From: Nitrospira sp.
GTDB taxonomy: Bacteria; Nitrospirota; Nitrospiria; Nitrospirales; Nitrospiraceae
Length of the DNA stretch: 64,000 nucleotides
Direction of reading: 5' to 3'
Assembly: GCA_005116815.1 (NCBI GenBank)
Contig: SWDR01000002.1
Span: 10,239 to 74,238, forward strand
In this document: piece after piece, positions 41,124 through 59,864 of the stretch
Position numbering within the stretch: position 1 is the stretch's first letter
How the letters are laid out: the number at the start of each line of letters is the position of its first letter
Notes under the pieces: generated by a model
Seen by the model: the letters and a program-made list of their open reading frames with translations, nothing else
What the model was told of the DNA's origin: nothing
Database searches by the model: none
Made by a program: the position numbers and the translations under genes

Positions 41124-42242
41124 ATGTTGAGTTCATTTACATCATTCAAGGGTCTTGCGGAAACCGATCTGTTCACGATGTTCACCCCCAAGCGGCAGCT
41201 TGTGGGCCTGGATATTGGGTCGAGCGGTATCAAGCTCGTTCAATTGAAGGAAAGCCGAGGACGCTTCATTCTCCAGAAGTTTGGGTTTAAAGCGCTTGAA
41301 CCGGAAGTGATTGTCGATGGTACGGTGATGGACGAGGGGCGGGTGGTATCGGCGATCAAGGAATTGTTCGAGGAAACGAATGTCAAGGTAAAGCAGGTTG
41401 CGGTGTCAATTTCAGGCCATGCCGTCATCATTAAAAAGATCAGTCTTCCTCCAATGCCCGATGAGGAGCTGGAGGGACAGGTGAGACTGGCGGCGGAACA
41501 ATATATTCCGTTCGATATCAATGAGGTGAACATCGATTTCAGTGTGTTGCCTTCTCCTGAGGCTTCTGGCGATGCGCAAGGCGAGATGTCGATCATTCTT
41601 GTTGCAGCCAAGAAGGATAAGATCAATGAATTGACCGAACTTGTCAAAGGGGCCGGGTTGTTTCCTCTGGTCATGGATGTGGATGCTTTTGCGATCGAAA
41701 ACATGCATGGGATCAACTATCCCGTTTCGCAGGAGGATACGACGGCGCTCGTGAATATTGGCGCGAGCGTCATGAATATCAACATTGTTCGAGGCGGTAC
41801 GTCGTTATTTACACGTGATATTCCCATCGGAGGGAATCGTTATACGGAAGCGATTCAACGAGAAATGGGTATGTCCTACGAAGAGGCAGAAGAAACGAAA
41901 AAAGGTGAGCGCTCGGCTGGGAGTAATCAGGCTGCCGTGACCACGGTTATCGATAGTGTGAATGCTGAGGTTGCATCTGAGATCGCCCGAACCATCGACT
42001 ATTTCAAGTCGACCTTGGCAGATGCGGATGTACAGCATGTCCTCTTGTGTGGAGGGGGCGCTCAGGTCAAGGGTTTGGTCGTACAACTGAAAGATCGTAT
42101 GCAGGCCGATGTCGAGGTCGCCAATCCGTTTAGTGAAATCGATACCTCGGGAAGCGATTTTGATCAGGACGCGTTGGCTGCACTGGCACCGTTAGCTGCT
42201 GTGGGGGTTGGCTTGGCCCTTAGATCGGTAGGCGACCGATGA
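41124..42242 (+). CDS. pilM: Type IV pilus assembly protein PilM
   Basis: LVGLDIGSSGIKLVQL (actin-like ATPase fold), ~372 aa. Stop overlaps the pilN start (ATGA). Confidence 0.9.
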   Translation: MLSSFTSFKGLAETDLFTMFTPKRQLVGLDIGSSGIKLVQLKESRGRFILQKFGFKALEPEVIVDGTVMDEGRVVSAIKELFEETNVKVKQVAVSISGHAVIIKKISLPPMPDEELEGQVRLAAEQYIPFDINEVNIDFSVLPSPEASGDAQGEMSIILVAAKKDKINELTELVKGAGLFPLVMDVDAFAIENMHGINYPVSQEDTTALVNIGASVMNINIVRGGTSLFTRDIPIGGNRYTEAIQREMGMSYEEAEETKKGERSAGSNQAAVTTVIDSVNAEVASEIARTIDYFKSTLADADVQHVLLCGGGAQVKGLVVQLKDRMQADVEVANPFSEIDTSGSDFDQDALAALAPLAAVGVGLALRSVGDR

Positions 42243-43753
42243 TTCGTATTAACTTATTGCCAGAGCTGAAGGGGCGCAAGGCCAAGCCTCAGTATGATGT
42301 CAGAGCCCAGGCCCTGTTGGGTGTGGGATTGGTGCTCATCACGTTGGCTGGCTGTTGGTGGTATTCGGCGTCGCTTGATGAAGAAATAAGTGCGCAGCAG
42401 GCCAAAAAGTCAGACTTGGAGAAGCAGGTCGTGCAGTTGAAGGAGCAAGTCAAGCAGGTTTCCGACTTTGAAAGCCGGAAGAAGGTGCTGGAAGACAAAA
42501 ATCATATTATTGACGAGCTGGAGAAGTCACGTGTTGGCCCTGTCAGGGTGCTTGACCATGTCAGTCAGAGCTTGGAGCCGCTCAAGGTCTGGCTGGTACG
42601 AGTCGCAGTCACGGGGAAAGAGATTGACCTTGAGGGCCGTGCAGCGACCAATGATGATGTGGTGGAATTCGTCAACATGTCAGATGGCCAGGATGAGCTC
42701 ATTCTGAGAGCCTCAAAAAACCCTCACCCGAAATTGATTGGCCGGATTACGATCGGGTTGGGAGAGGGGATTACCGGGTGGGTCGCCCAGGAACGAACGC
42801 GCGTCGTGATTCCGAGCAACGCCAGCGACGACTCGCGGTTTAAATTTTTCCACAACCTTCCGGAAGATCGCCATCAAGCCTTCGTCTCCGTGCCGATCAT
42901 GGCGAAGAAGGAAGTGGTCGGTGTGATCAATGTCCAACATAAACGGCCGAAGCGCTATCGGCCTGACGAGATCGCGCTGCTTTCGACCATTGCCAATCAG
43001 GTCGGAGGCGCGATCGAGAACGCGCGGCTCTACGATCAGATGAAACGCAAAGCCCTTCAAGTGGAAACATTGTCGCTGGTTTCAGAAACGGTGGCTTCCA
43101 ATCGATTGATCGAAGACGTGTTGCAGCTCCTGGTGACCATGACCGCCCAAATGATGAGTTCCAAGATCTGCTCGATCATGTTATTGGACGAAACCAGCGG
43201 AGAGCTGCGGATCGAGGCGACACAAAGCCTCAGCGAGCAATATCGCCGTAAGCCAAATCTCAAGGTCGGTCAGAGCATCAGCGGTCGTGCGGTGAAAGAC
43301 CGTCGGCCGATTATCGTGGCTGATGTCACCAAAGAGCAGGACTATATGTATCCGGACATGGCCAAGAAAGAAGGGTTATGCTCCATGGTGTCGGTGCCCA
43401 TGATGGTGAGGGAGAAGGCGGTGGGTGTGATTAATAGCTATACGTCTGTCCCGCACGTGTTTACCAGTGAAGAGGTGAAGCTGCTTCAGGCTATCGCTAA
43501 TCAAGCCGCCATCGCCATCGAGCATACGACCCTGATTGAGAAGTCTTTTGAGATGCAGGAAGCGCTGGCGGTTCGAAAGCTGATGGAGCGGGCTAAGGGC
43601 TACCTGATGCGCTCGAAGAAGCTGACAGAAGAAGAGGCCTTCAAGCTCATTCAGCGGCAAAGTATGGATCTGCGGAAGTCGATGCGCGAGATCGCCGAGG
43701 CCGTGTTGCTGGCAGGGGAAATCGACGGACGGGTGGATAGGCAGCGGGGCTAA
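42239..43753 (+). CDS. Composite ORF: PilN N-terminal ~146 aa joined in frame to a 5'-truncated GAF-GAF-ANTAR regulator
   Basis: Residues 1-146: MIRINLLPE, TM helix, coiled coil, VWLVRVAVTGKEIDLEGRAATNDDVVEFVN (PilN). From about nt 42677: two GAF domains (GEGITGWVAQ..., VGVINVQH / GQSISGRAV..., VGVINSY), then ANTAR (AVRKLMERAKGYLM....LTEEEAFKLIQRQSMDLRKSMREIAEAVL). Confidence 0.85.
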   Translation: MIRINLLPELKGRKAKPQYDVRAQALLGVGLVLITLAGCWWYSASLDEEISAQQAKKSDLEKQVVQLKEQVKQVSDFESRKKVLEDKNHIIDELEKSRVGPVRVLDHVSQSLEPLKVWLVRVAVTGKEIDLEGRAATNDDVVEFVNMSDGQDELILRASKNPHPKLIGRITIGLGEGITGWVAQERTRVVIPSNASDDSRFKFFHNLPEDRHQAFVSVPIMAKKEVVGVINVQHKRPKRYRPDEIALLSTIANQVGGAIENARLYDQMKRKALQVETLSLVSETVASNRLIEDVLQLLVTMTAQMMSSKICSIMLLDETSGELRIEATQSLSEQYRRKPNLKVGQSISGRAVKDRRPIIVADVTKEQDYMYPDMAKKEGLCSMVSVPMMVREKAVGVINSYTSVPHVFTSEEVKLLQAIANQAAIAIEHTTLIEKSFEMQEALAVRKLMERAKGYLMRSKKLTEEEAFKLIQRQSMDLRKSMREIAEAVLLAGEIDGRVDRQRG

Positions 43754-43861
43754 CAGGATGCCGAAACGTCTGTCTTTCTCACCCGCCTAATCAGGGCACG
43801 CTGATCCCGCATTGTTGCCCTCGCTTGTTGCTGTAACTGTGAAATGTCGTTGGTGGTCGTT

Positions 43862-45640
43862 ATGCGAACGTTTCGAATCGCCATGGTGCAGATGAATCCG
43901 ACGGTCGGGGATCTGGAGGGCAATGTCCGCCGGATTACTGGTTGGTTGCGCGAGGCGAGGAAGGCGAAGGCCGATTTGGTGGCCTTCCCGGAGCTGGCGA
44001 TCACCGGCTACCCACCTGAAGATCTGTTATTGAAACCACGTTTTGTCGCGGATAATCGCCGCGCGCTCCAGGAAATAGTCCGTCATTGCCGGGGTCTTGC
44101 CGCAGTGGTGGGCTACGTCAGCCAGAGCGATGGTCTCGATCCAAAGCCGGCTCGCTCGTCGGTCGTGCCGGCTGGTGCGCACGAACTCTACAATGCCGCG
44201 GCGGTAATCGCCGATCAGACACTTGTCACGACCTATTGTAAGTGGTACTTGCCGAACTACGGGGTGTTCGACGAGAGCCGGTATTTTTATCCGGGCAGAC
44301 GGCTGCCGCTCATTCGCTTGCGCGGCACGGTGGTCGGGGTCAATATTTGCGAAGATGTCTGGTTGCCGGAAGGGCCCACTCGTTTCCAGGCGGCTGCGGG
44401 CGCCGAAGTGATCGTGAATATCAATGCATCGCCGTTTCATCTGGGCAAGAGTCGGATACGCGAGCAGATGCTGGCAACCCGCGCGCGGGAAAACGGGGTG
44501 GTGCTCACCTATACCAATATCGTTGGCGGGCAAGATGAACTGGTGTTCGACGGGAATAGTGTGATCCTCGATCACCGGGGTGAGGTCATTGCGCGGGGAA
44601 AAGCGTTCGAGGAAGATTTGATCGTTGCGGATCTCAATATGGAGGCAGTCGTGCGAGAGCGGCGCACTCAGGGGAGAAAAAAAGTTTTGCCGAAACAGGT
44701 GGCCGCTGCGGTGGAGATGTGCAGTGCCTCGCTTCCCGCCATTTCAAAGATTCGGGTGCGCGCAGTTCCCGATATGCTAGCAGTCCTGGATCCGCTTGAG
44801 GAGGTCTATCTGGCACTCACCTTGGGGGTGCGAGATTACGTGAGGAAGAATGGATTCGCCCGAGCTGTGATCGGCTTGAGCGGGGGGGTGGACTCGGCAT
44901 TGACCGCCGTGCTTGCCGTCGATGCGCTCGGTGCCGAGAACGTCAAGGGGCTGTTCATGCCGTCGCCCTATACGTCTCAAGATAGTTATGAAGATGTCGC
45001 AGAGCTGGGGGCACGACTCGGGATTTCTGTCAGGACCCTCCCGATCACGAAGCTGTTCAATACGTACCGGGATGCGCTTACGAAGACGTTTGAGGGGCGG
45101 GCGCCCGATACGACGGAAGAGAATCTCCAAGCCCGCATTCGGGGCAATCTCCTCATGGCCTTCTCCAATAAGTTCGGCCATCTGGTGCTCACCACGGGCA
45201 ACAAGAGCGAGATGAGTGTCGGATACGCCACGTTGTACGGTGATATGGCCGGCGGATTTGCCGTGATCAAAGACGTCCCCAAGACGATGGTGTACGATCT
45301 GGCGAGGCTCCGCAATCTCAGAGGCTCGGCCCCGGCCATTCCCAAACGGACGTTAAGCCGGCCCCCGACCGCCGAGTTGAGGCCCGACCAGAAGGATGAA
45401 GATTCGTTGCCGCCCTATGAGGTCCTCGATCCCATTCTTCAGGCCTATGTGGAAGAAGACCGGTCTCTCGAAGAAATCGTCATCGCAGGGTACGACCGCG
45501 CGACGGTGGCACGAGTGATGGCGATGGTCGATGGCAGCGAGTACAAGCGCCGGCAGGCGCCGGTCGGCATCAAAATCACGCATCGGGCCTTGGGGAAAGA
45601 TCGCCGGATGCCGATTACGAACGGCTATCGTAATCGATAG
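43862..45640 (+). CDS. nadE: Glutamine-dependent NAD+ synthetase (nitrilase domain + NadE domain)
   Basis: MRTFRIAMVQMNPTVGD, FPELAITGYPPEDL, VNICED (CN-hydrolase triad); GLSGGVDSAL (PP-loop). Confidence 0.93.
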   Translation: MRTFRIAMVQMNPTVGDLEGNVRRITGWLREARKAKADLVAFPELAITGYPPEDLLLKPRFVADNRRALQEIVRHCRGLAAVVGYVSQSDGLDPKPARSSVVPAGAHELYNAAAVIADQTLVTTYCKWYLPNYGVFDESRYFYPGRRLPLIRLRGTVVGVNICEDVWLPEGPTRFQAAAGAEVIVNINASPFHLGKSRIREQMLATRARENGVVLTYTNIVGGQDELVFDGNSVILDHRGEVIARGKAFEEDLIVADLNMEAVVRERRTQGRKKVLPKQVAAAVEMCSASLPAISKIRVRAVPDMLAVLDPLEEVYLALTLGVRDYVRKNGFARAVIGLSGGVDSALTAVLAVDALGAENVKGLFMPSPYTSQDSYEDVAELGARLGISVRTLPITKLFNTYRDALTKTFEGRAPDTTEENLQARIRGNLLMAFSNKFGHLVLTTGNKSEMSVGYATLYGDMAGGFAVIKDVPKTMVYDLARLRNLRGSAPAIPKRTLSRPPTAELRPDQKDEDSLPPYEVLDPILQAYVEEDRSLEEIVIAGYDRATVARVMAMVDGSEYKRRQAPVGIKITHRALGKDRRMPITNGYRNR

Positions 45641-45645
45641 GCTGG

Positions 45646-46611
45646 TTACGGGGCTGTTTGCAGTGGCTTTGAGGGGAGCGTGGGTTTTCGCTTCTGGCTG
45701 TCGAGTTGTTTCCGAACCGATTGCAGTTCCTTCCTGAGAACTTCCAACTCCAAGTCTTTCTTGATGACGAGATCCTTCAACGTATGGATCTCTGCTTCGC
45801 GTTGAGCGGGCGAGTCCAACTGGGCGTCGGATGGCCTGGCCCCTGCAAGTTGCTCTCGAGTCGGAGCTGCCACGTGTTCGACGGGAGGCGTCGTTCGTTC
45901 GATAGCTGGTGCTAATAGCGAGGCCTGTTGCAGCAGCTGATAATCGATGGCGAGAAACCTGTCAGTGGAGCTTCCACCTGTCGGAGGGCGAAAACTATCG
46001 GACCGTTGGGCCGCACTCGGCGTGAAGAGCAGGGTTCGGTTCGAGAGGCCAGAGGGATCTGGTAGACGCCGGTGGGCTGGGTCGTTGGTGTGAAGCTGGC
46101 CCGGTGCATATCGGTATTGCGAGAGAGTGACGTAGAGCGAGAGGCCATAGGCGTAGAGGGAGCCGGCTGTAGTCTCTGTAACGGAGTGCTCCAAGCGCCC
46201 TGTGCCTTGGCGAGGACTGGTGACCTGAAATGATACGGCCTCTCCCGTTCCCGCAGCCGTCAGGGCTTTGGCAATTCTTGGAGTGAGGAACTGAACTTCT
46301 TCCGGCGAAAAAACCGGGACAGGAGAAGCCGACCCTGCCAGTAGGTCTTGGAGTCCTCTCTGCTGTTCCTGGACCTGCATCCCGCTCAAGACGCGGGCGA
46401 TGAGGGCTGGCTCCAGATGGATCGGGTGACTGGCCTGAATCGACCGATCAGCCATTGGTTGAAGGGATACTATACCGCGAGGATCTTCGGAGAGGGCTCT
46501 GCCGGTTTGGCCGGTTGCGCTACAGGCTGTGCCGCTCACACAGGCTAACACGAGTAGTAACAATGCCTTGCGAAGGCGACTAAATCTCGAAGAGGGGAAT
46601 AAGAGAGCCAT
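45646..46611 (-). CDS. Hypothetical lipoprotein with a C-terminal coiled coil
   Basis: Lipobox-like LLLVLACVSGTAC; 321 aa; no recognised domain. Confidence 0.5.
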   Translation of the reverse strand: MALLFPSSRFSRLRKALLLLVLACVSGTACSATGQTGRALSEDPRGIVSLQPMADRSIQASHPIHLEPALIARVLSGMQVQEQQRGLQDLLAGSASPVPVFSPEEVQFLTPRIAKALTAAGTGEAVSFQVTSPRQGTGRLEHSVTETTAGSLYAYGLSLYVTLSQYRYAPGQLHTNDPAHRRLPDPSGLSNRTLLFTPSAAQRSDSFRPPTGGSSTDRFLAIDYQLLQQASLLAPAIERTTPPVEHVAAPTREQLAGARPSDAQLDSPAQREAEIHTLKDLVIKKDLELEVLRKELQSVRKQLDSQKRKPTLPSKPLQTAP

Positions 46612-46736
46612 AGGTGCGGCAAATCTAGCATAGATGACAGATCACCGCCAGGATGGATGCGTCGTGCGGCCATCCCCTGAGATGCCAGCCTAGGGAGATG
46701 CGCCGTTCCCCTCTTTCGTATAAGGCCGCAAGGGCG

Positions 46737-46766
46737 TTGACAGATTTTCAGAGAGCATGTTACAAG
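46737..46766 (+). promoter_or_regulatory. Candidate promoter of the porin-amtB leader
   Basis: TTGACA (46737-46742), 18-nt spacer ending in TGT (extended -10), TACAAG (46761-46766). Confidence 0.35.
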
Positions 46767-46782
46767 AGTCCCCATCGGATAG

Positions 46783-46873
46783 GGGAACAACGGCGTTTCC
46801 CACCGGCCTCAAGATAGTACGGCATGGACAATGGCGTCCTCCGGCCCCAACGGGCTAGAGGGCGTTTTTTTTT
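46783..46873 (+). promoter_or_regulatory. Dual-hexaloop + terminator leader (ANTAR-target-like attenuator) upstream of porin-amtB-amtB-glnB-glnD-glnA
   Basis: P1 GGGAAC-AACGGC-GTTTCCC (46783-46801, one bulge), 24-nt linker, P2 GGAC-AATGGC-GTCC (46826-46839). The terminator CGTCCTC-CG-GCCC caac GGGC-TA-GAGGGCG (46835-46864) followed by T9 (46865-46873) shares the GTCC arm with P2. Confidence 0.6.
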
Positions 46874-47074
46874 GGCTGCATGCGAACAGGCTGAGTGACA
46901 GAGAAGATGAGAAGCGAGATGCATACATTGGCCGGTGGGAATCGATGTGGAGATGAGAATCGAATGGGCTTGGAGGGTGCGCACAATGGCGTGCGTGGCG
47001 ACGACGTCGTCGAGGTGAGCGAGAGTAGGTCTGTGAATCACAACATCACCAATCGGACGAGGGAGGCCGTCATT

Positions 47075-48388
47075 ATGTCAGTACGCAGTCTCATGGGGAT
47101 AGGAATGTGCGCATTAGTTTCGCTGCTTGGTAGCCAGGCAGCATTGGCTCAAGTGGTTCCGCCGACGCCCGCGCCGACCGTGCAAGAGCGGTTGGAGGCA
47201 TTGGAGAAGAAGTCGGATGCGCCGTCGTTGTGGAAGACTCTGGGGTTTAAGGCCTCCGGGTTTCTCGATGTGGCCTATACGCAGAACTTCAACAATCCGA
47301 ACACCAACCTCAATCAACTGCATATCTTCGACACCAACGCCAATTCGTTCATGCCGCACCTGGCGCAGCTCATGTTTGAACGGCCCGCTGATGGAGGAGG
47401 GAGCGAGCTGGACCGGCTTGGCTTCCGAGCAAGGCTGAACTTCGGGATGGATGCCCGGGTGACGAGGGCGCGAACAAATTTTGCGCCTGGTACTAGCAAC
47501 AACGAACTCGACTTCCAGGAGCTCTATGGCGAGTACATCGTCCCGGTCGGCAATGGGTTGAAAATTCAAGCCGGCAAGATCAACACTTTGATCGGTTATG
47601 AAGTGATCAACAGTTTCGAAAACCCGAACTTCTCGCGCAGCTTCATGTTCGGATTGGGCCAAGCCTTTACGACGACGGGTGTGCGCATGACGTATACCTT
47701 CAATCCGATCGTGACCGCGTCGATCGGTGTGATCAATGGTTGGGACAACGTCGTTGACAATAACAGGGGGAAATCGTTTGAATGGTTGGTCGCCATTACC
47801 CCCCACGAGAAGATCGGCGTGAGTTTCTACGGGTCCTATGGCGCGGAGCAATCGAACGGGCAAGGGGCTGCTTCTTTCACAACCCAGGCCGATCCGACGG
47901 CTAAGCGGACGGTGGTGGGGTCGATCATTAGCTTGAAGCCCACCGACAAGGACACCATCATTCTTGAGCCCTACTACGCCAATGAGGGGAATGCTAGCAC
48001 AGTAAGCCGATCGCAGAATGCCCGATGGAACGGGTTTGCCGGCTATCTGATTCATGATTTCTCCGATCAATGGAGCGCCAGATTCCGGGGAGAGATCTTC
48101 GAGGATGCGGGTGGCGCCAGGACCTGTACGGGGGGAATCAGTTTCGCCGGAGGGACTAATACCTGTGCCAGCGGCAGCTCGCCGATTGGCTCTAGTGTCG
48201 CGGGAGCGGGAGGGATCGCCCAGACACTATGGGAGAACACCTTTACACTCCAATACAAACCCTTTCCCTCGCTGATCACGCGGACCGAGTTTCGGTACGA
48301 CAAGTCCGATAAGAACGTCTTTCTCTATGGCAGCCGACCGGCAAACAATCAAGAAACCCTGTCATTCCAAGTCATCTATATGTTCTGA
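47075..48388 (+). CDS. Outer-membrane beta-barrel porin (OmpL-like/bbp2-type by composition)
   Basis: Start at MSVRSLMGIGMCALVSLLGSQAALAQ (signal peptide, GGGAGG RBS). Alternating beta-strand pattern, C-terminal ...FQVIYMF. Confidence 0.65.
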   Translation: MSVRSLMGIGMCALVSLLGSQAALAQVVPPTPAPTVQERLEALEKKSDAPSLWKTLGFKASGFLDVAYTQNFNNPNTNLNQLHIFDTNANSFMPHLAQLMFERPADGGGSELDRLGFRARLNFGMDARVTRARTNFAPGTSNNELDFQELYGEYIVPVGNGLKIQAGKINTLIGYEVINSFENPNFSRSFMFGLGQAFTTTGVRMTYTFNPIVTASIGVINGWDNVVDNNRGKSFEWLVAITPHEKIGVSFYGSYGAEQSNGQGAASFTTQADPTAKRTVVGSIISLKPTDKDTIILEPYYANEGNASTVSRSQNARWNGFAGYLIHDFSDQWSARFRGEIFEDAGGARTCTGGISFAGGTNTCASGSSPIGSSVAGAGGIAQTLWENTFTLQYKPFPSLITRTEFRYDKSDKNVFLYGSRPANNQETLSFQVIYMF

Positions 48389-48411
48389 GCAGGGGAGGAG
48401 ATGAACTCATT

Positions 48412-49794
48412 ATGAACCGATATCTTCGTATCATGACATCGATGCTTCCCGTCCTAGCCTGCGCCATCTTGGTGGGGACGACGGGTCTCTATGCACAAGA
48501 CGCGGGGGCGCCGGCTCCCGCAGCCCCGGTGGTCGCAGCTCCGGAAGCGGCGGCCATGCCAGCCGCACCGAAGATCGACACCGGAGACACCACCTGGGTC
48601 TTGGTCTCCACGGCGATGGTGCTCGCGATGACGGCGCCGGGCCTTGCGCTGTTCTACGGAGGCATGGTGCGTTCGAAAAATGCGCTGGGGACGATCATGC
48701 AGAGTTTTGTGATCCTCTGTCTGATCAGCATCCAGTGGGTCTTGTGGGGCTACAGTTTGGCCTTCGGGCCGGATAAGGGGCACCTGATCGGGGGGCTCGA
48801 ATGGATCGGGCTCAACGGGGTTGGTTTAGAGCCGAACGCCGATTATGCGGCGACGATTCCGCATCAAGCCTTCATGATCTTTCAGATGATGTTTGCGGTG
48901 ATCACGCCCGCGCTCATCACGGGGGCAGTGGCCGAACGGATGAAGTTCAGCGCCTTTCTTGTCTTTACCTTGCTTTGGGCAACCTTCATCTACGATCCCT
49001 TGGCCCATTGGGTGTGGGCGGTTGGGGGCTGGGTCCGAAACCTGGGAGCCCTGGACTTTGCCGGTGGAACGGTAGTCCACATTAGCTCCGGTGCTGCGGC
49101 CTTGGCCTGTGCCATCGTGTTGAAGAAGCGGTTGGGTTACGGCAGGGAACATATGGTCCCGCATAATTTGCCAATGACGGTCTTGGGAGCGTCCTTGCTC
49201 TGGTTCGGGTGGTTCGGGTTTAACTCCGGCAGCGCCGTCGCCTCCGGGGCGTTGGCGGTCAGTGCCTTTGTCGTCACCAATACGGCGGCTGCTGCTGCGG
49301 CCTTGGCTTGGATGGTCGTCGAGTGGATGTATCGAGGCAAACCGACGGTGTTGGGCGCCGCGAGCGGCGCGGTCGCGGGATTAGTGGCGATTACGCCGGC
49401 CTCCGGATTTGTTGGTCCTGTGGCGTCGATTGTGATCGGGCTAGGGGCGGGAGTCCTCTGTTATTTAGCGGTGTTGTGGAAGTCGAAGTTGGGCTATGAT
49501 GACGCCCTCGATGTGGTCGGTATCCATGGTGTCGGAGGTGTCTGGGGTGCGTTGGCAACAGGTCTCTTTGCCTCGAAGGCAATCAACGCGGCTGGCGGTG
49601 ACGGGTTGTTTTATGGCAATCCGGCACAATTGGGTATTCAGGCGCTGGCGGTGCTCATCTCCGTGGTGTTTGTGTTTGTTGGAACCTATGCCATTCTGAA
49701 GTTGGTCGACGGATTGATCGGGCTGCGTGTGAGTGAAGAAGATGAGCGAAAGGGCCTCGATCTCAGTCAACATGATGAACGGGCCTATTCGTAA
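48412..49794 (+). CDS. amtB: Ammonium transporter AmtB (copy 1)
   Basis: DTGDTTWVLVSTAMVLAMT.PGLALFYGG; DFAGGTVVHISSG; GFNSGSA; VVGIHGVGGVWG. Confidence 0.95.
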   Translation: MNRYLRIMTSMLPVLACAILVGTTGLYAQDAGAPAPAAPVVAAPEAAAMPAAPKIDTGDTTWVLVSTAMVLAMTAPGLALFYGGMVRSKNALGTIMQSFVILCLISIQWVLWGYSLAFGPDKGHLIGGLEWIGLNGVGLEPNADYAATIPHQAFMIFQMMFAVITPALITGAVAERMKFSAFLVFTLLWATFIYDPLAHWVWAVGGWVRNLGALDFAGGTVVHISSGAAALACAIVLKKRLGYGREHMVPHNLPMTVLGASLLWFGWFGFNSGSAVASGALAVSAFVVTNTAAAAAALAWMVVEWMYRGKPTVLGAASGAVAGLVAITPASGFVGPVASIVIGLGAGVLCYLAVLWKSKLGYDDALDVVGIHGVGGVWGALATGLFASKAINAAGGDGLFYGNPAQLGIQALAVLISVVFVFVGTYAILKLVDGLIGLRVSEEDERKGLDLSQHDERAYS

Positions 49795-49824
49795 GGCAAC
49801 GGGTGACCGAAGGCAAGGAGGACG

Positions 49825-51225
49825 ATGGTGATTGACCCTGCACGAATCCACATTCGCAAGCGTAGGCGCCAAGGGGCGCTCAGTGTCATAGGCCTGACTA
49901 TCGCGGTCGTGATGCTGGGAACCTTGGCGGTCTTCACAGGGTCAGTCGCGGCGCAGGATACAGCGGCCGCACCGGCGCAAGCCGTCGCCGCAACTCCTGT
50001 GCTGAAGATCGATACGGGGGACACAGCATGGGTCCTCACCTCCACGGCGCTGGTGCTGGCGATGACGATGCCTGGATTGGCCCTGTTCTATGGAGGTCTC
50101 GTCCGGGGGAAGAATGTCCTGGGGACGATCATGCAGAGCATCGTCATTCTCTGCATGGTCAGCCTGCTCTGGATTGTTGTCGGGTACAGCTTGGCCTTCG
50201 GCCCTGACAAGGGGGGGCTCATCGGGGGGCTGGACTGGATCGGGTTGAGCGGGGTAGGAAGCGAGCCGCATCCCGTCTACGGTCCCACGATTCCTCACCA
50301 AGTGTTCATGTTATTCCAGCTCATGTTTGCGGCAATCACGCCGGCTCTGATTACGGGGGCGGTGGCTGAGCGGATGAAGTTTTCCGCCCTACTGCTGTTC
50401 GCGGCTTTGTGGTCCCTGGTGATTTATACGCCGGTGGCCCATTGGATCTGGGGCGGTGGATGGTTGGGAAAGATGGGCGCGTTGGATTTCGCCGGAGGCG
50501 CAGTGGTGCATATCAGCTCCGGCGTGAGCGCCTTGGTCTGTGCCATTGTATTGGGGAAGCGCAAGGGACATGGCGCCGATTATATGGCGCCGCATAACCT
50601 GCCGTTCACGTTGTTAGGGACCGGCCTGCTCTGGTTTGGCTGGTTCGGATTCAACGCGGGTAGCGCATTGGGCGCGAATGGGTTGGCCGCGAGTACCTTC
50701 TTGGCGACCCATGCAGCCGCGGCCGCTGGGGCGCTGGTGTGGATGGGAGTGGAGTGGGCGCATCGTGGTAGGCCGACCGTCCTGGGTCTGGCCAGTGGCG
50801 CGGTAGCCGGACTGGCCACCGTGACCCCGGCCTCCGGCTATATCGGACCACTATCCGCGATCGTAATTGGCGTATTTGCAGGGATTCTGTGCTATTTCGC
50901 CGTTGTTTGGAAGGGGAGGATGGGCTATGATGACTCGCTCGATGTCGTGGGTATCCACGGTGTGGGCGGCGTCTTCGGCATCCTCGCGACGGGTGTCTTC
51001 GCCTCCAAGGCCATTAATGCCGCCGGGGCAGACGGGCTCTTGTTCGGGAATGCCGGTCAACTCGGAATTCAGGCGATCATGGTCGCAGCGGTCGCGCTGT
51101 TTTCCGTGATCGGGACCTGGTTGATCTTGAAGGTCGTCGATGCAGCGGTTGGGCTGCGGGTCACTCCGGAAGACGAATCGACGGGGTTGGACCTGAGTCA
51201 GCACAACGAGCGGGCCTATTCATAA
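49825..51225 (+). CDS. amtB: Ammonium transporter AmtB (copy 2, tandem paralog)
   Basis: Same Amt signatures. Roughly 70% identical by eye to copy 1 across the whole core. Confidence 0.95.
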   Translation: MVIDPARIHIRKRRRQGALSVIGLTIAVVMLGTLAVFTGSVAAQDTAAAPAQAVAATPVLKIDTGDTAWVLTSTALVLAMTMPGLALFYGGLVRGKNVLGTIMQSIVILCMVSLLWIVVGYSLAFGPDKGGLIGGLDWIGLSGVGSEPHPVYGPTIPHQVFMLFQLMFAAITPALITGAVAERMKFSALLLFAALWSLVIYTPVAHWIWGGGWLGKMGALDFAGGAVVHISSGVSALVCAIVLGKRKGHGADYMAPHNLPFTLLGTGLLWFGWFGFNAGSALGANGLAASTFLATHAAAAAGALVWMGVEWAHRGRPTVLGLASGAVAGLATVTPASGYIGPLSAIVIGVFAGILCYFAVVWKGRMGYDDSLDVVGIHGVGGVFGILATGVFASKAINAAGADGLLFGNAGQLGIQAIMVAAVALFSVIGTWLILKVVDAAVGLRVTPEDESTGLDLSQHNERAYS

Positions 51226-51310
51226 ACAGTCCATGACACTATTGACCATGCAATCATGCCGGCGATCCTTGCGACGATGAATGGTCAGCGTCCTCGGGTC
51301 TGCCAGGTAA

Positions 51311-54348
<3,038 letters not shown>

Positions 54349-54394
54349 CAGAGGCGGCGCAGTCTCATTCAGCGTCATTTGAAAGGAGAAGGGG

Positions 54395-55804
54395 ATGAAC
54401 GTACGTGAAGTGTTGGAGTATGTGAAGAAACATAAAGTCCAGATCGTCGACTTGAAGTTTGTCGATCTCATCGGGACCTGGCAGCATTTCAGTATTCCGA
54501 CGAATGAATTGACGGAAGACCTCTTCAAGGATGGGTCCGGACTGGACGGCTCCTCCATTCGTGGCTGGAAGGCCATCAATAACAGCGACATGTTGGTCGT
54601 GCCGGATCCGTCGACGGCCTGTCTCGATCCGTTTTGTGCGGTCCCGACGCTGAGCCTCATCGGCAACGTGGTCGATCCGATCACGCGCGAGACCTACGAT
54701 CGCGATCCGCGCTATGTCGCCCAGAAGGCGGAGAAATACCTCCAGAGCACGAAGATCGGCGATACCTCCTACTGGGGTCCCGAAGCCGAGTTCTTCATTT
54801 TCGATCAAGCCCGGTACGATCAGAATGGCCATAGCGGCTACTACTTCATCGACTCCGAAGAAGGCGTCTGGAACATGGGGCAGGAAGGCCACAACCTGGG
54901 CGGCAAGATCCGCCAGAAGGAAGGCTATTTCCCTGTCGCCCCGACCGATACGCAACAGGACATCCGCAGCGAGATGATCCTGGAGATGGAGAAAGCCGGT
55001 ATCCAGATCGAGAAGCATCACCACGAAGTCGCCACGGCCGGTCAGGCGGAAATCGATATCCGCTTCGACTCGCTGGTCAGGACGGCAGACAAAATGATGA
55101 TGTACAAGTACATCGTCAAGAACGTGGCTCGCCGGCATGGCAAGACCGCGACCTTCATGCCGAAGCCGATTTTCGGCGATAACGGATCGGGCATGCATAG
55201 TCACCAGAGCATCTGGAAGGACGGCAAGCCCCTGTTCGCCGGGAAGGAATATGCGGGCGTGTCGCAGATGTGCCTGCACTACATCGGCGGGATTCTGAAA
55301 CATGCGCCGGCGCTGGCCGCCTTTACCAATCCGACGACGAACTCCTACAAGCGTTTGACGCCAGGGTTCGAAGCTCCGGTGTTGTTGGCCTATTCCAGCC
55401 GGAATCGGTCGGCCGGCATCCGGATTCCCATGTATTCACCGAGCCCCAAGGCGAAGCGGATCGAGGTGCGGTTCCCGGACCCGGCCGCGAACCCGTATCT
55501 CGCCTTCTCTGCCATGCTCATGGCCGGGTTGGATGGTATCCAGAACAAGATCAACCCGGGTGAACCGGCCGAGCAGGATCTCTACGATCTCGAAGCGAAG
55601 GCAGCGGCGAAGATTCGCACCATGCCGGGCAGCCTCGACGAAGCGTTGAACAACCTTGAGAAGGACCATGAGTTCCTGCTCAAAGGCGGGGTCTTCAGCA
55701 AGGACCTGATCGAAGCCTGGATCGGGTACAAGCGGACCAAGGAAGTCGATACCATGCGGTTGCGCCCGCATCCGTATGAGTTCTACCTCTATTACGACGT
55801 CTAG
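54395..55804 (+). CDS. glnA: Glutamine synthetase type I
   Basis: FDGSSIRGW; [16 protein letters not shown]; NSYKRL; adenylylation-loop-like NLYDL variant; 469 aa. Confidence 0.97.
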
Positions 55805-55877
55805 AGTACAGGACCCATCTTAGGTATGGGTTGACCTGGTCGAAGAGGCATGGTACATATCTCTTTATGAGCGGAGT

Positions 55878-55970
55878 CGAGGCAACGGCGCCTCGGTAAG
55901 GCTTTCGACATACGGCACACGGACAACGGCGTCCGTCATTCTGGAAAGAGTGGCGGACGCCGTGTTGTTT
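55878..55970 (+). promoter_or_regulatory. Dual-hexaloop + terminator-like element (ANTAR-target-like), unit 1 of the glnA-FNT spacer
   Basis: P1 CGAGGC-AACGGC-GCCTCG (55878-55895), 23-nt linker, P2 ACGGAC-AACGGC-GTCCGT (55919-55936). ACAACGGCGTCCG can alternatively pair with CGGACGCCGTGTTGT (55954-55968), followed by TTGCC (weak U tract). Confidence 0.5.
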
Positions 55971-56028
55971 GCCGACAGATTCCTGGACGATGAAGTCTTG
56001 GATCGGGGTGGCAGAGCCACCTCCACGT

Positions 56029-56079
56029 AGGACAATGGCGTCCTCATTCTGGCAGCAGAGTGAGGACGTTTTCGTTTTT
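56029..56079 (+). terminator. Hexaloop hairpin overlapping an intrinsic terminator, unit 2 of the glnA-FNT spacer
   Basis: AGGAC-AATGGC-GTCCT (56029-56044). Terminator CGTCCTC (56039-56045) / GAGGACG (56062-56068) followed by TTTTCGTTTTT. The preceding hairpin GGTGGC-AGA-GCCACC (56007-56021) is not a hexaloop. Confidence 0.55.
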
Positions 56080-57610: not shown

Positions 57611-57625
57611 GGTAGGGTTGGCGTG

Positions 57626-57723
57626 CCGGCAATGGAGCCGGTGCAACGAATTGTCGGCTGGCAATGGCGCCAGCTTCTGGGGTTCCTTCGCGGAATCATG
57701 CTGGAAGCTGGCGCCATTGTTTT
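57626..57723 (+). promoter_or_regulatory. Dual-hexaloop + terminator leader (ANTAR-target-like attenuator) between cynS and the wHTH-nirA pair
   Basis: P1 CCGGC-AATGGA-GCCGG (57626-57641), 16-nt linker, P2 CTGGC-AATGGC-GCCAG (57658-57673). A perfect 16-bp terminator stem CAATGGCGCCAGCTTC (57662-57677) / GAAGCTGGCGCCATTG (57704-57719) followed by TTTT consumes the loop and 3' arm of P2. Confidence 0.65.

Positions 57724-57750: not shown

Positions 57751-59864
<2,114 letters not shown>

Follow-up and report, generated by a model that had tools for sequence, protein, structure and literature searches.

We analysed a stretch of Nitrospira sp. DNA (64,000 nucleotides, hereafter the window) in which positions 46737-46873 of the plus strand form the 5´ leader of a porin-amtB-amtB-glnB-glnD-glnA operon. 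Judged from its sequence, this leader probably is an ANTAR-type transcription attenuator of that operon and part of a nitrogen-assimilation regulon. A preliminary description of the same DNA had explained the leader as a regulated attenuator, and that explanation is supported by the layout of the leader, its conservation in 14 species, the recurrence of the same layout before other nitrogen genes and the presence of an ANTAR gene 3 kb upstream.

Architecture of the leader

The leader opens with a -35-like hexamer, TTGACA (46737-46742), invariant in 17 of 17 aligned orthologous or paralogous leaders, followed at 46758-46766 by TG-n-TACAAG, in which TG, TA and AA are invariant in the same alignment and the 'n' is variable. 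The preliminary description had located this promoter-like site, two hairpins (P1 and P2), a 24-nt linker, a terminator and a run of nine T just where we read them. The promoter-like site is better read as an extended -10 element (TGnTACAAG), and transcription is predicted to start near 46772-46774. P1 (GGGGAAC-AACGGC-GUUUCCC, 46782-46801) has the hairpin and loop first described, without the bulged U, which is not needed since one G-U gives a stem of seven base pairs; its hexaloop, AACGGC (46789-46794), has A at position 1 (A1) and G at position 4 (G4). Its fold energy is -10.1 kcal/mol, a value equalled by 1 of 200 shuffles. The 24-nt linker (46802-46825), whose 3´ part, UAGUACGGCAU, is kept among orthologues, leads to P2 (GGAC-AAUGGC-GUCC, 46826-46839), a weak antiterminator hairpin with a 4-bp stem and the hexaloop AAUGGC (46830-46835), again with A1 and G4. 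P2 folds at -5.2 kcal/mol and by itself is no better than shuffled sequence (23 of 200 shuffles equal it). A possible outer helix, P0, formed by 46775-46778 with 46803-46806, is 91% paired and not significant.

An intrinsic terminator stem-loop follows, with a core at 46835-46864 made up of seven base pairs, a 1x1 C/A mismatch and five base pairs including one G-U, and with the loop CAAC. This is the same structure that had been given as an 11-bp stem with a 2x2 internal loop, if the G-U is counted as unpaired. Further G-U pairs lengthen the stem to 46833-46866. The hairpin is GC-rich and a U9 tract (46865-46873; eight or nine T in orthologues) comes directly after it, as in Rho-independent terminators. 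The 12-bp terminator folds at -23.6 kcal/mol (z = -3.6), which none of 200 shuffles equalled, and the minimum free energy (MFE) fold of the entire leader consists of P1 and the terminator. Since the terminator 5´ arm (46833/46835-46841) includes the last bases of the P2 loop and the entire P2 3´ arm (shared span 46833-46839), P2 and the terminator are mutually exclusive, as the preliminary description had proposed. Two stem-loops with six-nt loops, A1 and G4 in both, and a terminator overlapping P2 are the features of a dual-hexaloop ANTAR target, shown for EutV (PMC8934654; PMC3369931). A simple sigma-70/terminator scanner called neither the leader promoter, because the -10 element has no T at position 6, nor the leader terminator, because its stem has an internal mismatch; with the promoter uncalled, conservation is the sole argument for it.

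A terminator that is this strong alone, next to a P2 hairpin that shuffled sequences match, might be an unregulated insulator or constitutive stop beside hexaloop hairpins that arose by chance. We regard this as the most improbable of the explanations considered. There is no co-oriented upstream gene in need of termination: the nearest plus-strand gene upstream, nadE, ends at 45640 and a minus-strand open reading frame (ORF; 45646-46611) lies between, so that the terminator (46835-46873) does not end an upstream transcript, in agreement with the earlier remark that no plus-strand gene lies upstream of it. A constitutive stop placed between a conserved promoter and the genes it serves would keep them silent. 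The element is also conserved and found repeatedly, and an independent covariance model (R2, below) detects it with E ~1e-6.

Regulation with no protein factor, by a metabolite riboswitch (e.g. glutamine-sensing) or a leader peptide, would also fit a leader with two alternative structures before a glutamine synthetase/amtB operon, and a 24-codon ORF does begin at ATG 46823. However, Rfam gave no match at gathering score near the leader and no relevant one at E up to 10 within 46500-47200, and the conserved parts are two small hairpin loops with no structured ligand pocket. Moreover, identical loops recur in many unrelated leaders, as expected of a common protein factor. This explanation is thus very unlikely. 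The leader peptide from ATG 46823 was rejected, as it has no Shine-Dalgarno sequence and its ATG is conserved only as P2 flank.

Conservation and recurrence across Nitrospira

For comparison, we used 80 loci (1.23 Mb) from different Nitrospira species, each surrounding a homologue of the ANTAR gene. The order nadE, divergent ORF, leader and porin-amtB is common to 14 loci (one of them, L027, shows the leader only). As had been anticipated for orthologous amtB operons, 14 other Nitrospira species have nearly the same leader sequence ahead of porin-amtB-amtB-glnB-glnD(-glnA), all the way from the -35 hexamer to the U tract. Among orthologues, little or no variation is seen in TTGACA, TG, TA-AA, the two loops, the stem of P2 and the arms of the terminator, and terminator pairing reaches 98.5% across the 17 aligned leaders, with few compensatory changes. 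At locus L008, DNA homology to the window is broken upstream of the leader and resumes at 46728, just before the -35 hexamer. In other species, a dual-hexaloop/terminator unit is found just downstream of the ANTAR gene, before a porin/UrtA urea-transporter operon, a sensor kinase/NarL-type regulator pair, or nadE.

A structural alignment was built from 62 distinct P1-linker-P2 units, selected for stems of at least 4 bp. C-AA-G-G is invariant in both loops and their closing pairs, and A1 and G4 are invariant in all 62 leaders. Of the alignment cells, 90.7% are paired, double-sided changes occur at 9 of 12 pairs, and the observed covariation was reached by 0 of 500 shuffles. The covariation comes mainly from the outer P1 pairs, where AU, GC, UA and CG are all seen, and is not forced by the 4-bp selection rule. 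The P2 core, (G)GAC-AAYGGC-GUC(C), is nearly invariant in the same leaders. Covariation of the stems around a fixed loop, which the preliminary description had proposed to look for, is thus seen for P1 across the 62 leaders and is not significant among the near-invariant orthologues. The linker ranges from 11 to 32 nt across Nitrospira leaders, with 24 nt in the window leader.

One covariance model, R1, gave 71 matches at E < 0.01 in the 1.23 Mb, several of them in loci outside its training set, and 71 of 71 lie on the strand of the ANTAR gene and the downstream genes. A second model, R2, was built from non-orthologous leaders of other species, without the window or any amtB-type orthologue. 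When both strands of the window were searched with R2, 46781-46843 ranked first (28 bits, E ~1e-6), followed by matches at 55876, 55981 and 57624. In the 80 loci and the window together, pairs of A1/G4 hexaloops with a T run after them were found 43 times on the plus strand vs 3 on the minus strand. Of the 74 family matches, 48 have a strong hairpin with a T tract that begins in the P2 loop or 3´ arm; the same holds for 15 of 600 random positions (2.5%).

These data also bear on whether the stems, being inverted repeats, might instead serve a dimeric transcription factor as DNA operators, at a promoter regulated by nitrogen, with the hairpins incidental. An operator would indeed account for the invariance, without covariation, of the P2 core and of a solitary-hairpin module downstream (below). 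It would not account for the strict strand specificity seen with R1 (all matches on the coding strand) and with the paired hexaloops and T run, or for the asymmetry of the conserved 'spacer' AAYGGC; the P1 arms vary in sequence yet stay paired, and the sites lie downstream of the promoter, overlapped by a terminator hairpin and U tract in the 48 matches just counted. We judge DNA operators to be about as improbable as a riboswitch or leader peptide.

A candidate regulator and a proposed mechanism

A candidate cognate regulator is encoded on the plus strand 3 kb upstream of the leader, where the coding sequence at 42678-43753, within ORF 42239-43753, specifies two GAF domains and a C-terminal ANTAR domain (Pfam; ANTAR 1.8e-18) that matches the full profile length. 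The same genome thus encodes an ANTAR-domain protein, and in related loci its gene is linked to the leaders. Its Nitrospira homologues are 421 aa long, are annotated as 'GAF and ANTAR domain-containing' and show 79-93% identity among the alignments listed. The ANTAR domain aligns over its full length with those of Rv1626, EutV and NasR, and keeps the conserved Arg, ERAKG motif and aromatic position; these positions have been shown to be important in NasR (PMC7496416). The protein has two GAF domains and no receiver (REC) domain, and in this it departs from REC-ANTAR proteins of the GnfR type. The first GAF domain, GAF1, best resembles the N-terminal GAF of PtsP/EI-Ntr (PDB 3ci6, 1.7e-19; NCBIfam PRK11061, 3e-38). 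It also resembles the N-terminal GAF of NifA (4.4e-30). The NifA GAF binds 2-oxoglutarate. The PtsP GAF binds glutamine (PMC4848567). From this likeness, we infer that GAF1 reads nitrogen status (glutamine and/or 2-oxoglutarate), that the neighbouring GAF-GAF-ANTAR protein is the regulator of the leader, and that readthrough occurs under nitrogen limitation.

In the mechanism that we propose, transcription would start near 46773 at the sigma-70-like promoter with its extended -10 element. By default, the nascent RNA would fold into P1 and the strong terminator (-23.6 kcal/mol, U9), and a leader RNA of ~100 nt would be released. When active, the ANTAR-domain protein would bind the A1/G4 hexaloops, P1 first and then the weak P2 (-5.2 kcal/mol). 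Closed P2 would sequester GGCGUCC, the first bases of the terminator 5´ arm, and RNA polymerase would read through into the genes for ammonium uptake, PII, GlnD and glutamine synthetase. With P2 weak and the terminator strong, termination would be the default, and readthrough would require a protein that clamps the loops.

The same hexaloop antitermination could be served by another effector, either a different ANTAR regulator (e.g. a REC-ANTAR protein like NasT or GnfR) or an unrelated RNA-binding protein, encoded elsewhere in the genome. In Geobacter, a REC-ANTAR protein binds a site whose loop is likewise AANGGC, and the local regulator gene is truncated and fused in the window. However, most loci with enough downstream sequence have a GAF-GAF-ANTAR gene 1-8 kb before a co-oriented dual-hexaloop leader, and a GAF1 of the nitrogen-sensing PtsP/NifA type fits the regulon. 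Another effector is therefore unlikely, though of the competing explanations it is the one that we take most seriously.

Several observations weigh against the reading of the leader as an ANTAR attenuator governed by the neighbouring protein. First, among true orthologues the covariation of P2 and the terminator was not significant; that set is 98-99% paired with almost no compensatory change, and such leaders are too conserved for orthologue covariation to be informative. The covariation that we did detect stems from paralogous leaders picked for stems of at least 4 bp. Second, R2 also matched 2186-2270 on the minus strand (E 7e-4; R1 E 0.04), antisense inside rpsL, so weak matches are not fully specific. 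This match, with the hairpin GAGCAC-AAUGGA-GUGCUC, is the only one of R2 in the window at E < 0.01 besides the four leaders, and we took it as chance since it is antisense within the rpsL coding sequence. Third, the Rfam result described above, within its limits of score and position, gives the leader no known family. Fourth, the linker has 24 nt (11-32 in the family) vs 5-12 nt in eut leaders. There, linkers of 3 and 14 nt fail, and a 14-nt linker abolished induction in Enterococcus faecalis (PMC3369931); the constraint on linker length may be system-specific. Fifth, 64 kb of the genome is visible, and a second ANTAR protein may be encoded outside the window. Finally, the window copy of the regulator gene is without its first ~64 codons and is fused to pilN.

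With regard to this last point, ORF 42239-43753 is an in-frame fusion at 42677/42678, in which the first 146 pilN codons are joined to approximately codon 65 of the regulator gene. At this junction, every relative whose sequence extends far enough has ~5.2 kb more, comprising the rest of pilN, further genes and the regulator 5´ end, and the exact pilN::ANTAR fusion protein has no entry in a public gene index. If the fusion is real, the regulator of the source organism may be defective. Another unusual junction is found no more than 16 kb away, at ~58330-58420, where a nirA fragment (ORF 57984-58571, plus strand; ferredoxin-like half domain only) meets an inverted, C-terminally truncated Cpn60/GroEL-like gene (ORF 57948-59849, minus strand). 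Both junctions may be real deletions or assembly chimeras. The leader is untouched by them: 42678-47100 forms one continuous match, with 90-91% identity, to each of two related loci (L002 and L004).

The genes downstream of the Nitrospira leaders are all nitrogen-related: amtB/glnB/glnD/glnA, focA/nirC-cynS, the nirA fragment, urtA, nadE and a histidine kinase/response regulator pair. A broader proposal, which we put forward tentatively and would rate somewhat below an even chance, is that the one-component GAF-GAF-ANTAR protein might be the master nitrogen regulator of Nitrospira, including complete ammonia oxidisers (comammox). It would sense glutamine/2-oxoglutarate directly via GAF1 and switch the whole assimilation regulon purely by RNA antitermination, through an extended AC-AAYGGC-GU hexaloop code. 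If so, the regulon would comprise the ammonium transporters, PII, GlnD, glutamine synthetase, the urea ABC transporter, cyanase, the nitrite transporter and reductase, and NAD synthetase, and the code would extend to terminator-independent variants with a single hexaloop or with 3-4 hexaloops in tandem.

In soils, waters and wastewater plants, nitrite is oxidised predominantly by Nitrospira, of which some lineages carry out complete ammonia oxidation. The literature that we searched contained no account of how their nitrogen assimilation is regulated, and no experimental study of the GAF-GAF-ANTAR architecture. The leader thus offers an entry point to a nitrogen-assimilation regulon for which we found no published description, together with a candidate GAF-GAF-ANTAR regulator. 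With its sister elements, it defines a testable regulon that serves the uptake or assimilation of ammonium, urea, cyanate and nitrite and to which PII, GlnD and glutamine synthetase also belong. For RNA biology, the leaders provide a populous and strongly conserved set of predicted ANTAR targets, with an unusually long linker and an extended conserved sequence of loop and closing pairs.

Sister elements, neighbouring genes and comparison with known ANTAR systems

A scan of the window for hairpins with an AAYGGN hexaloop found eight plus-strand copies (at 46782, 46826, 46978, 55876, 55919, 56029, 57623 and 57656), each fitting C-AAYGG(C/A)-G and each located in an intergenic leader. Apart from the copies in and near the amtB leader, these mark three sister attenuators, all on the plus strand. 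One, at 55876-55971, lies after glnA and before focA/nirC and consists of P1 (55876-55897), P2 (55919-55936) and a terminator (55926-55963) with a T-rich tail; it scored 44.9 bits with R1 and E 1.6e-6 with R2, and is preceded by a promoter-like site, TTGACC...TGgTACATA. In tandem with it before focA/nirC is a second attenuator (55984-56079), with a degenerate P1 (55984-55998, loop GAUGAA), P2 (56029-56044) and a terminator (56039-56068) followed by UUUUCGUUUUU; it was matched by R1 with E 1e-4 and by R2 with E 1e-5. The remaining attenuator, at 57623-57723, follows cynS and precedes a small ORF and the nirA fragment. It consists of P1 (57623-57644), P2 (57656-57675) and a terminator (57662-57719) followed by UUUU; the entire leader folds at -62 kcal/mol and was found by both R1 and R2. 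In all three, the terminator 5´ arm starts within the P2 loop.

The operon downstream of the amtB leader has the gene order first described, and the porin ATG, which had been placed about 200 nt downstream, is at 47075, 201 nt past the U tract. The genes, all on the plus strand and assigned with Pfam, encode a BBP2-type porin (47075-48388; BBP2), AmtB (48412-49794; Ammonium_transp), a second AmtB (49825-51225; Ammonium_transp), the PII protein GlnB (51323-51661; P-II), GlnD (51658-54348; GlnD_UR_UTase) and GlnA (54395-55804; Gln-synt). The gaps between the genes from porin to glnA (47075-55804) are short, and the synteny is kept in related loci. glnA is followed by genes for a formate/nitrite transporter and cyanase, then by a small ORF and by a fragment encoding the N-terminal part of a ferredoxin-nitrite/sulfite reductase. 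On the other side of the leader, the minus-strand ORF at 45646-46611 (321 aa) has no Pfam or NCBIfam match. In most related loci, this ORF separates the leader from the ANTAR gene (or nadE) and runs in the opposite direction to them, with 28-41% identity in the distant loci. A divergent control region may be common to it and the leader promoter.

The further solitary hairpin of the preliminary description is real (UGCGCAC-AAUGGC-GUGCGUG, 46978-46997, plus strand), and belongs to a separate, invariant module of the porin 5´ untranslated region (UTR), not to the attenuator. It is followed by a palindromic hairpin, CGACGACGUCGUCG (46999-47012), and then by AGGUGAG. The module, GCGCAC-AAUGGC-GUGCG..CGACGAYGYCGUCG-AGGUGAG (46978-47020 in the window; 15597-15640 in L018), is invariant in 23 loci, with no covariation, and precedes both amtB-linked and urea-transporter-linked porin genes. 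The covariance models gave weak single-hairpin matches to it (E 0.05 to 0.17). The hairpin may be a single-hexaloop ANTAR site, fitting the revised minimal motif (PMC8934654), outside the terminator switch.

Between the terminator and this module, in 46874-46960, the blocks CTGCATKCGARC and TGGCYGGTGGGAATCG are conserved among amtB-type orthologues. We looked by eye for a sigma-54 promoter of the form GG-N10-GC between the terminator and the porin gene and found no match; TGGCYGGTGGGAATCG resembles a -24 box, without the -12 GC. Elsewhere, three to four tandem hexaloop hairpins with a repeat unit of ~40 nt stand directly before urtA (L042, 14912-15056; L051, 14970-15074; L067, 9164-9269), and no recognisable terminator was found in these three leaders. 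Sequestration of the Shine-Dalgarno sequence by the last hexaloop arm was considered for them and is unsupported by the MFE folds.

Predicted ANTAR targets in diverse bacteria cluster before genes for PII, ammonium and urea transporters, nitrite reductase and glutamine synthetase (Ramesh 2012, PMC3369931). Nitrospira is absent from the main text and searched supplements of that survey, and no paper joining ANTAR, antitermination and Nitrospira was found in the literature searched. As of the same survey, no GAF- or PAS-ANTAR protein had been characterised (PMC3369931). Desulfotomaculum acetoxidans, with 13 predicted attenuators in six units and a regulator not characterised there (PMC3369931), resembles Nitrospira in having a multi-operon dual-hexaloop regulon and differs in belonging to another phylum.

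Like the eut leaders controlled by EutV in E. faecalis, the Nitrospira leaders have two A1/G4 hexaloop hairpins, a P2 overlapped by the terminator and several attenuators per gene cluster. Besides the longer linker, they differ in that the closing pairs and loop, AC-AAYGGC-GU, are far more conserved than A1 and G4 alone, and in that the candidate regulator has a GAF-GAF input where EutV has REC; the pathway controlled also differs. NasR/nasF of Klebsiella and NasS-NasT of Paracoccus and Pseudomonas share with the mechanism proposed for Nitrospira the use of ANTAR antitermination in nitrogen-assimilation leaders, and NasR, like the Nitrospira candidate, is a one-component sensor-ANTAR protein. 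However, the sensors in these systems are a NIT domain (nitrate/nitrite) or the NasS partner, not a PtsP/NifA-like GAF, and the targets are nas/nir operons only.

The closest studied analogue is GnfK/GnfR antitermination in Geobacter (Ueki & Lovley 2010, PMC2995071), and the mechanism is not new: ANTAR proteins are already known to control nitrogen genes, also through amtB and PII leaders. In Geobacter sulfurreducens, the ANTAR protein GnfR binds CAGGCAANGGCGCC, a sequence that overlaps the terminator in each of the nifH, glnK and amtB leaders (PMC2995071). This site consists of a GGC/GCC stem and an AANGGC hexaloop; the Nitrospira loops are AAYGGC, with matching flanking C and G, and the last 12 bases of the Geobacter consensus at its 3´ side, GGCAANGGCGCC, are matched by one copy in the window (57660-57671, GGCAAUGGCGCC). 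In both organisms, the hexaloop site lies upstream of an intrinsic terminator and overlaps it, and the nitrogen genes with such leaders include amtB and a PII gene. The differences are that GnfR is a phosphorylated REC-ANTAR protein working with sigma-54 promoters, whereas the Nitrospira candidate is a one-component GAF-GAF-ANTAR protein and the promoter is sigma-70-like, and that the Nitrospira stems are mostly GGAC/GUCC, not GGC/GCC. The regulons differ as well, the one predicted for Nitrospira covering the assimilation of ammonium, urea, cyanate and nitrite, not nitrogenase.

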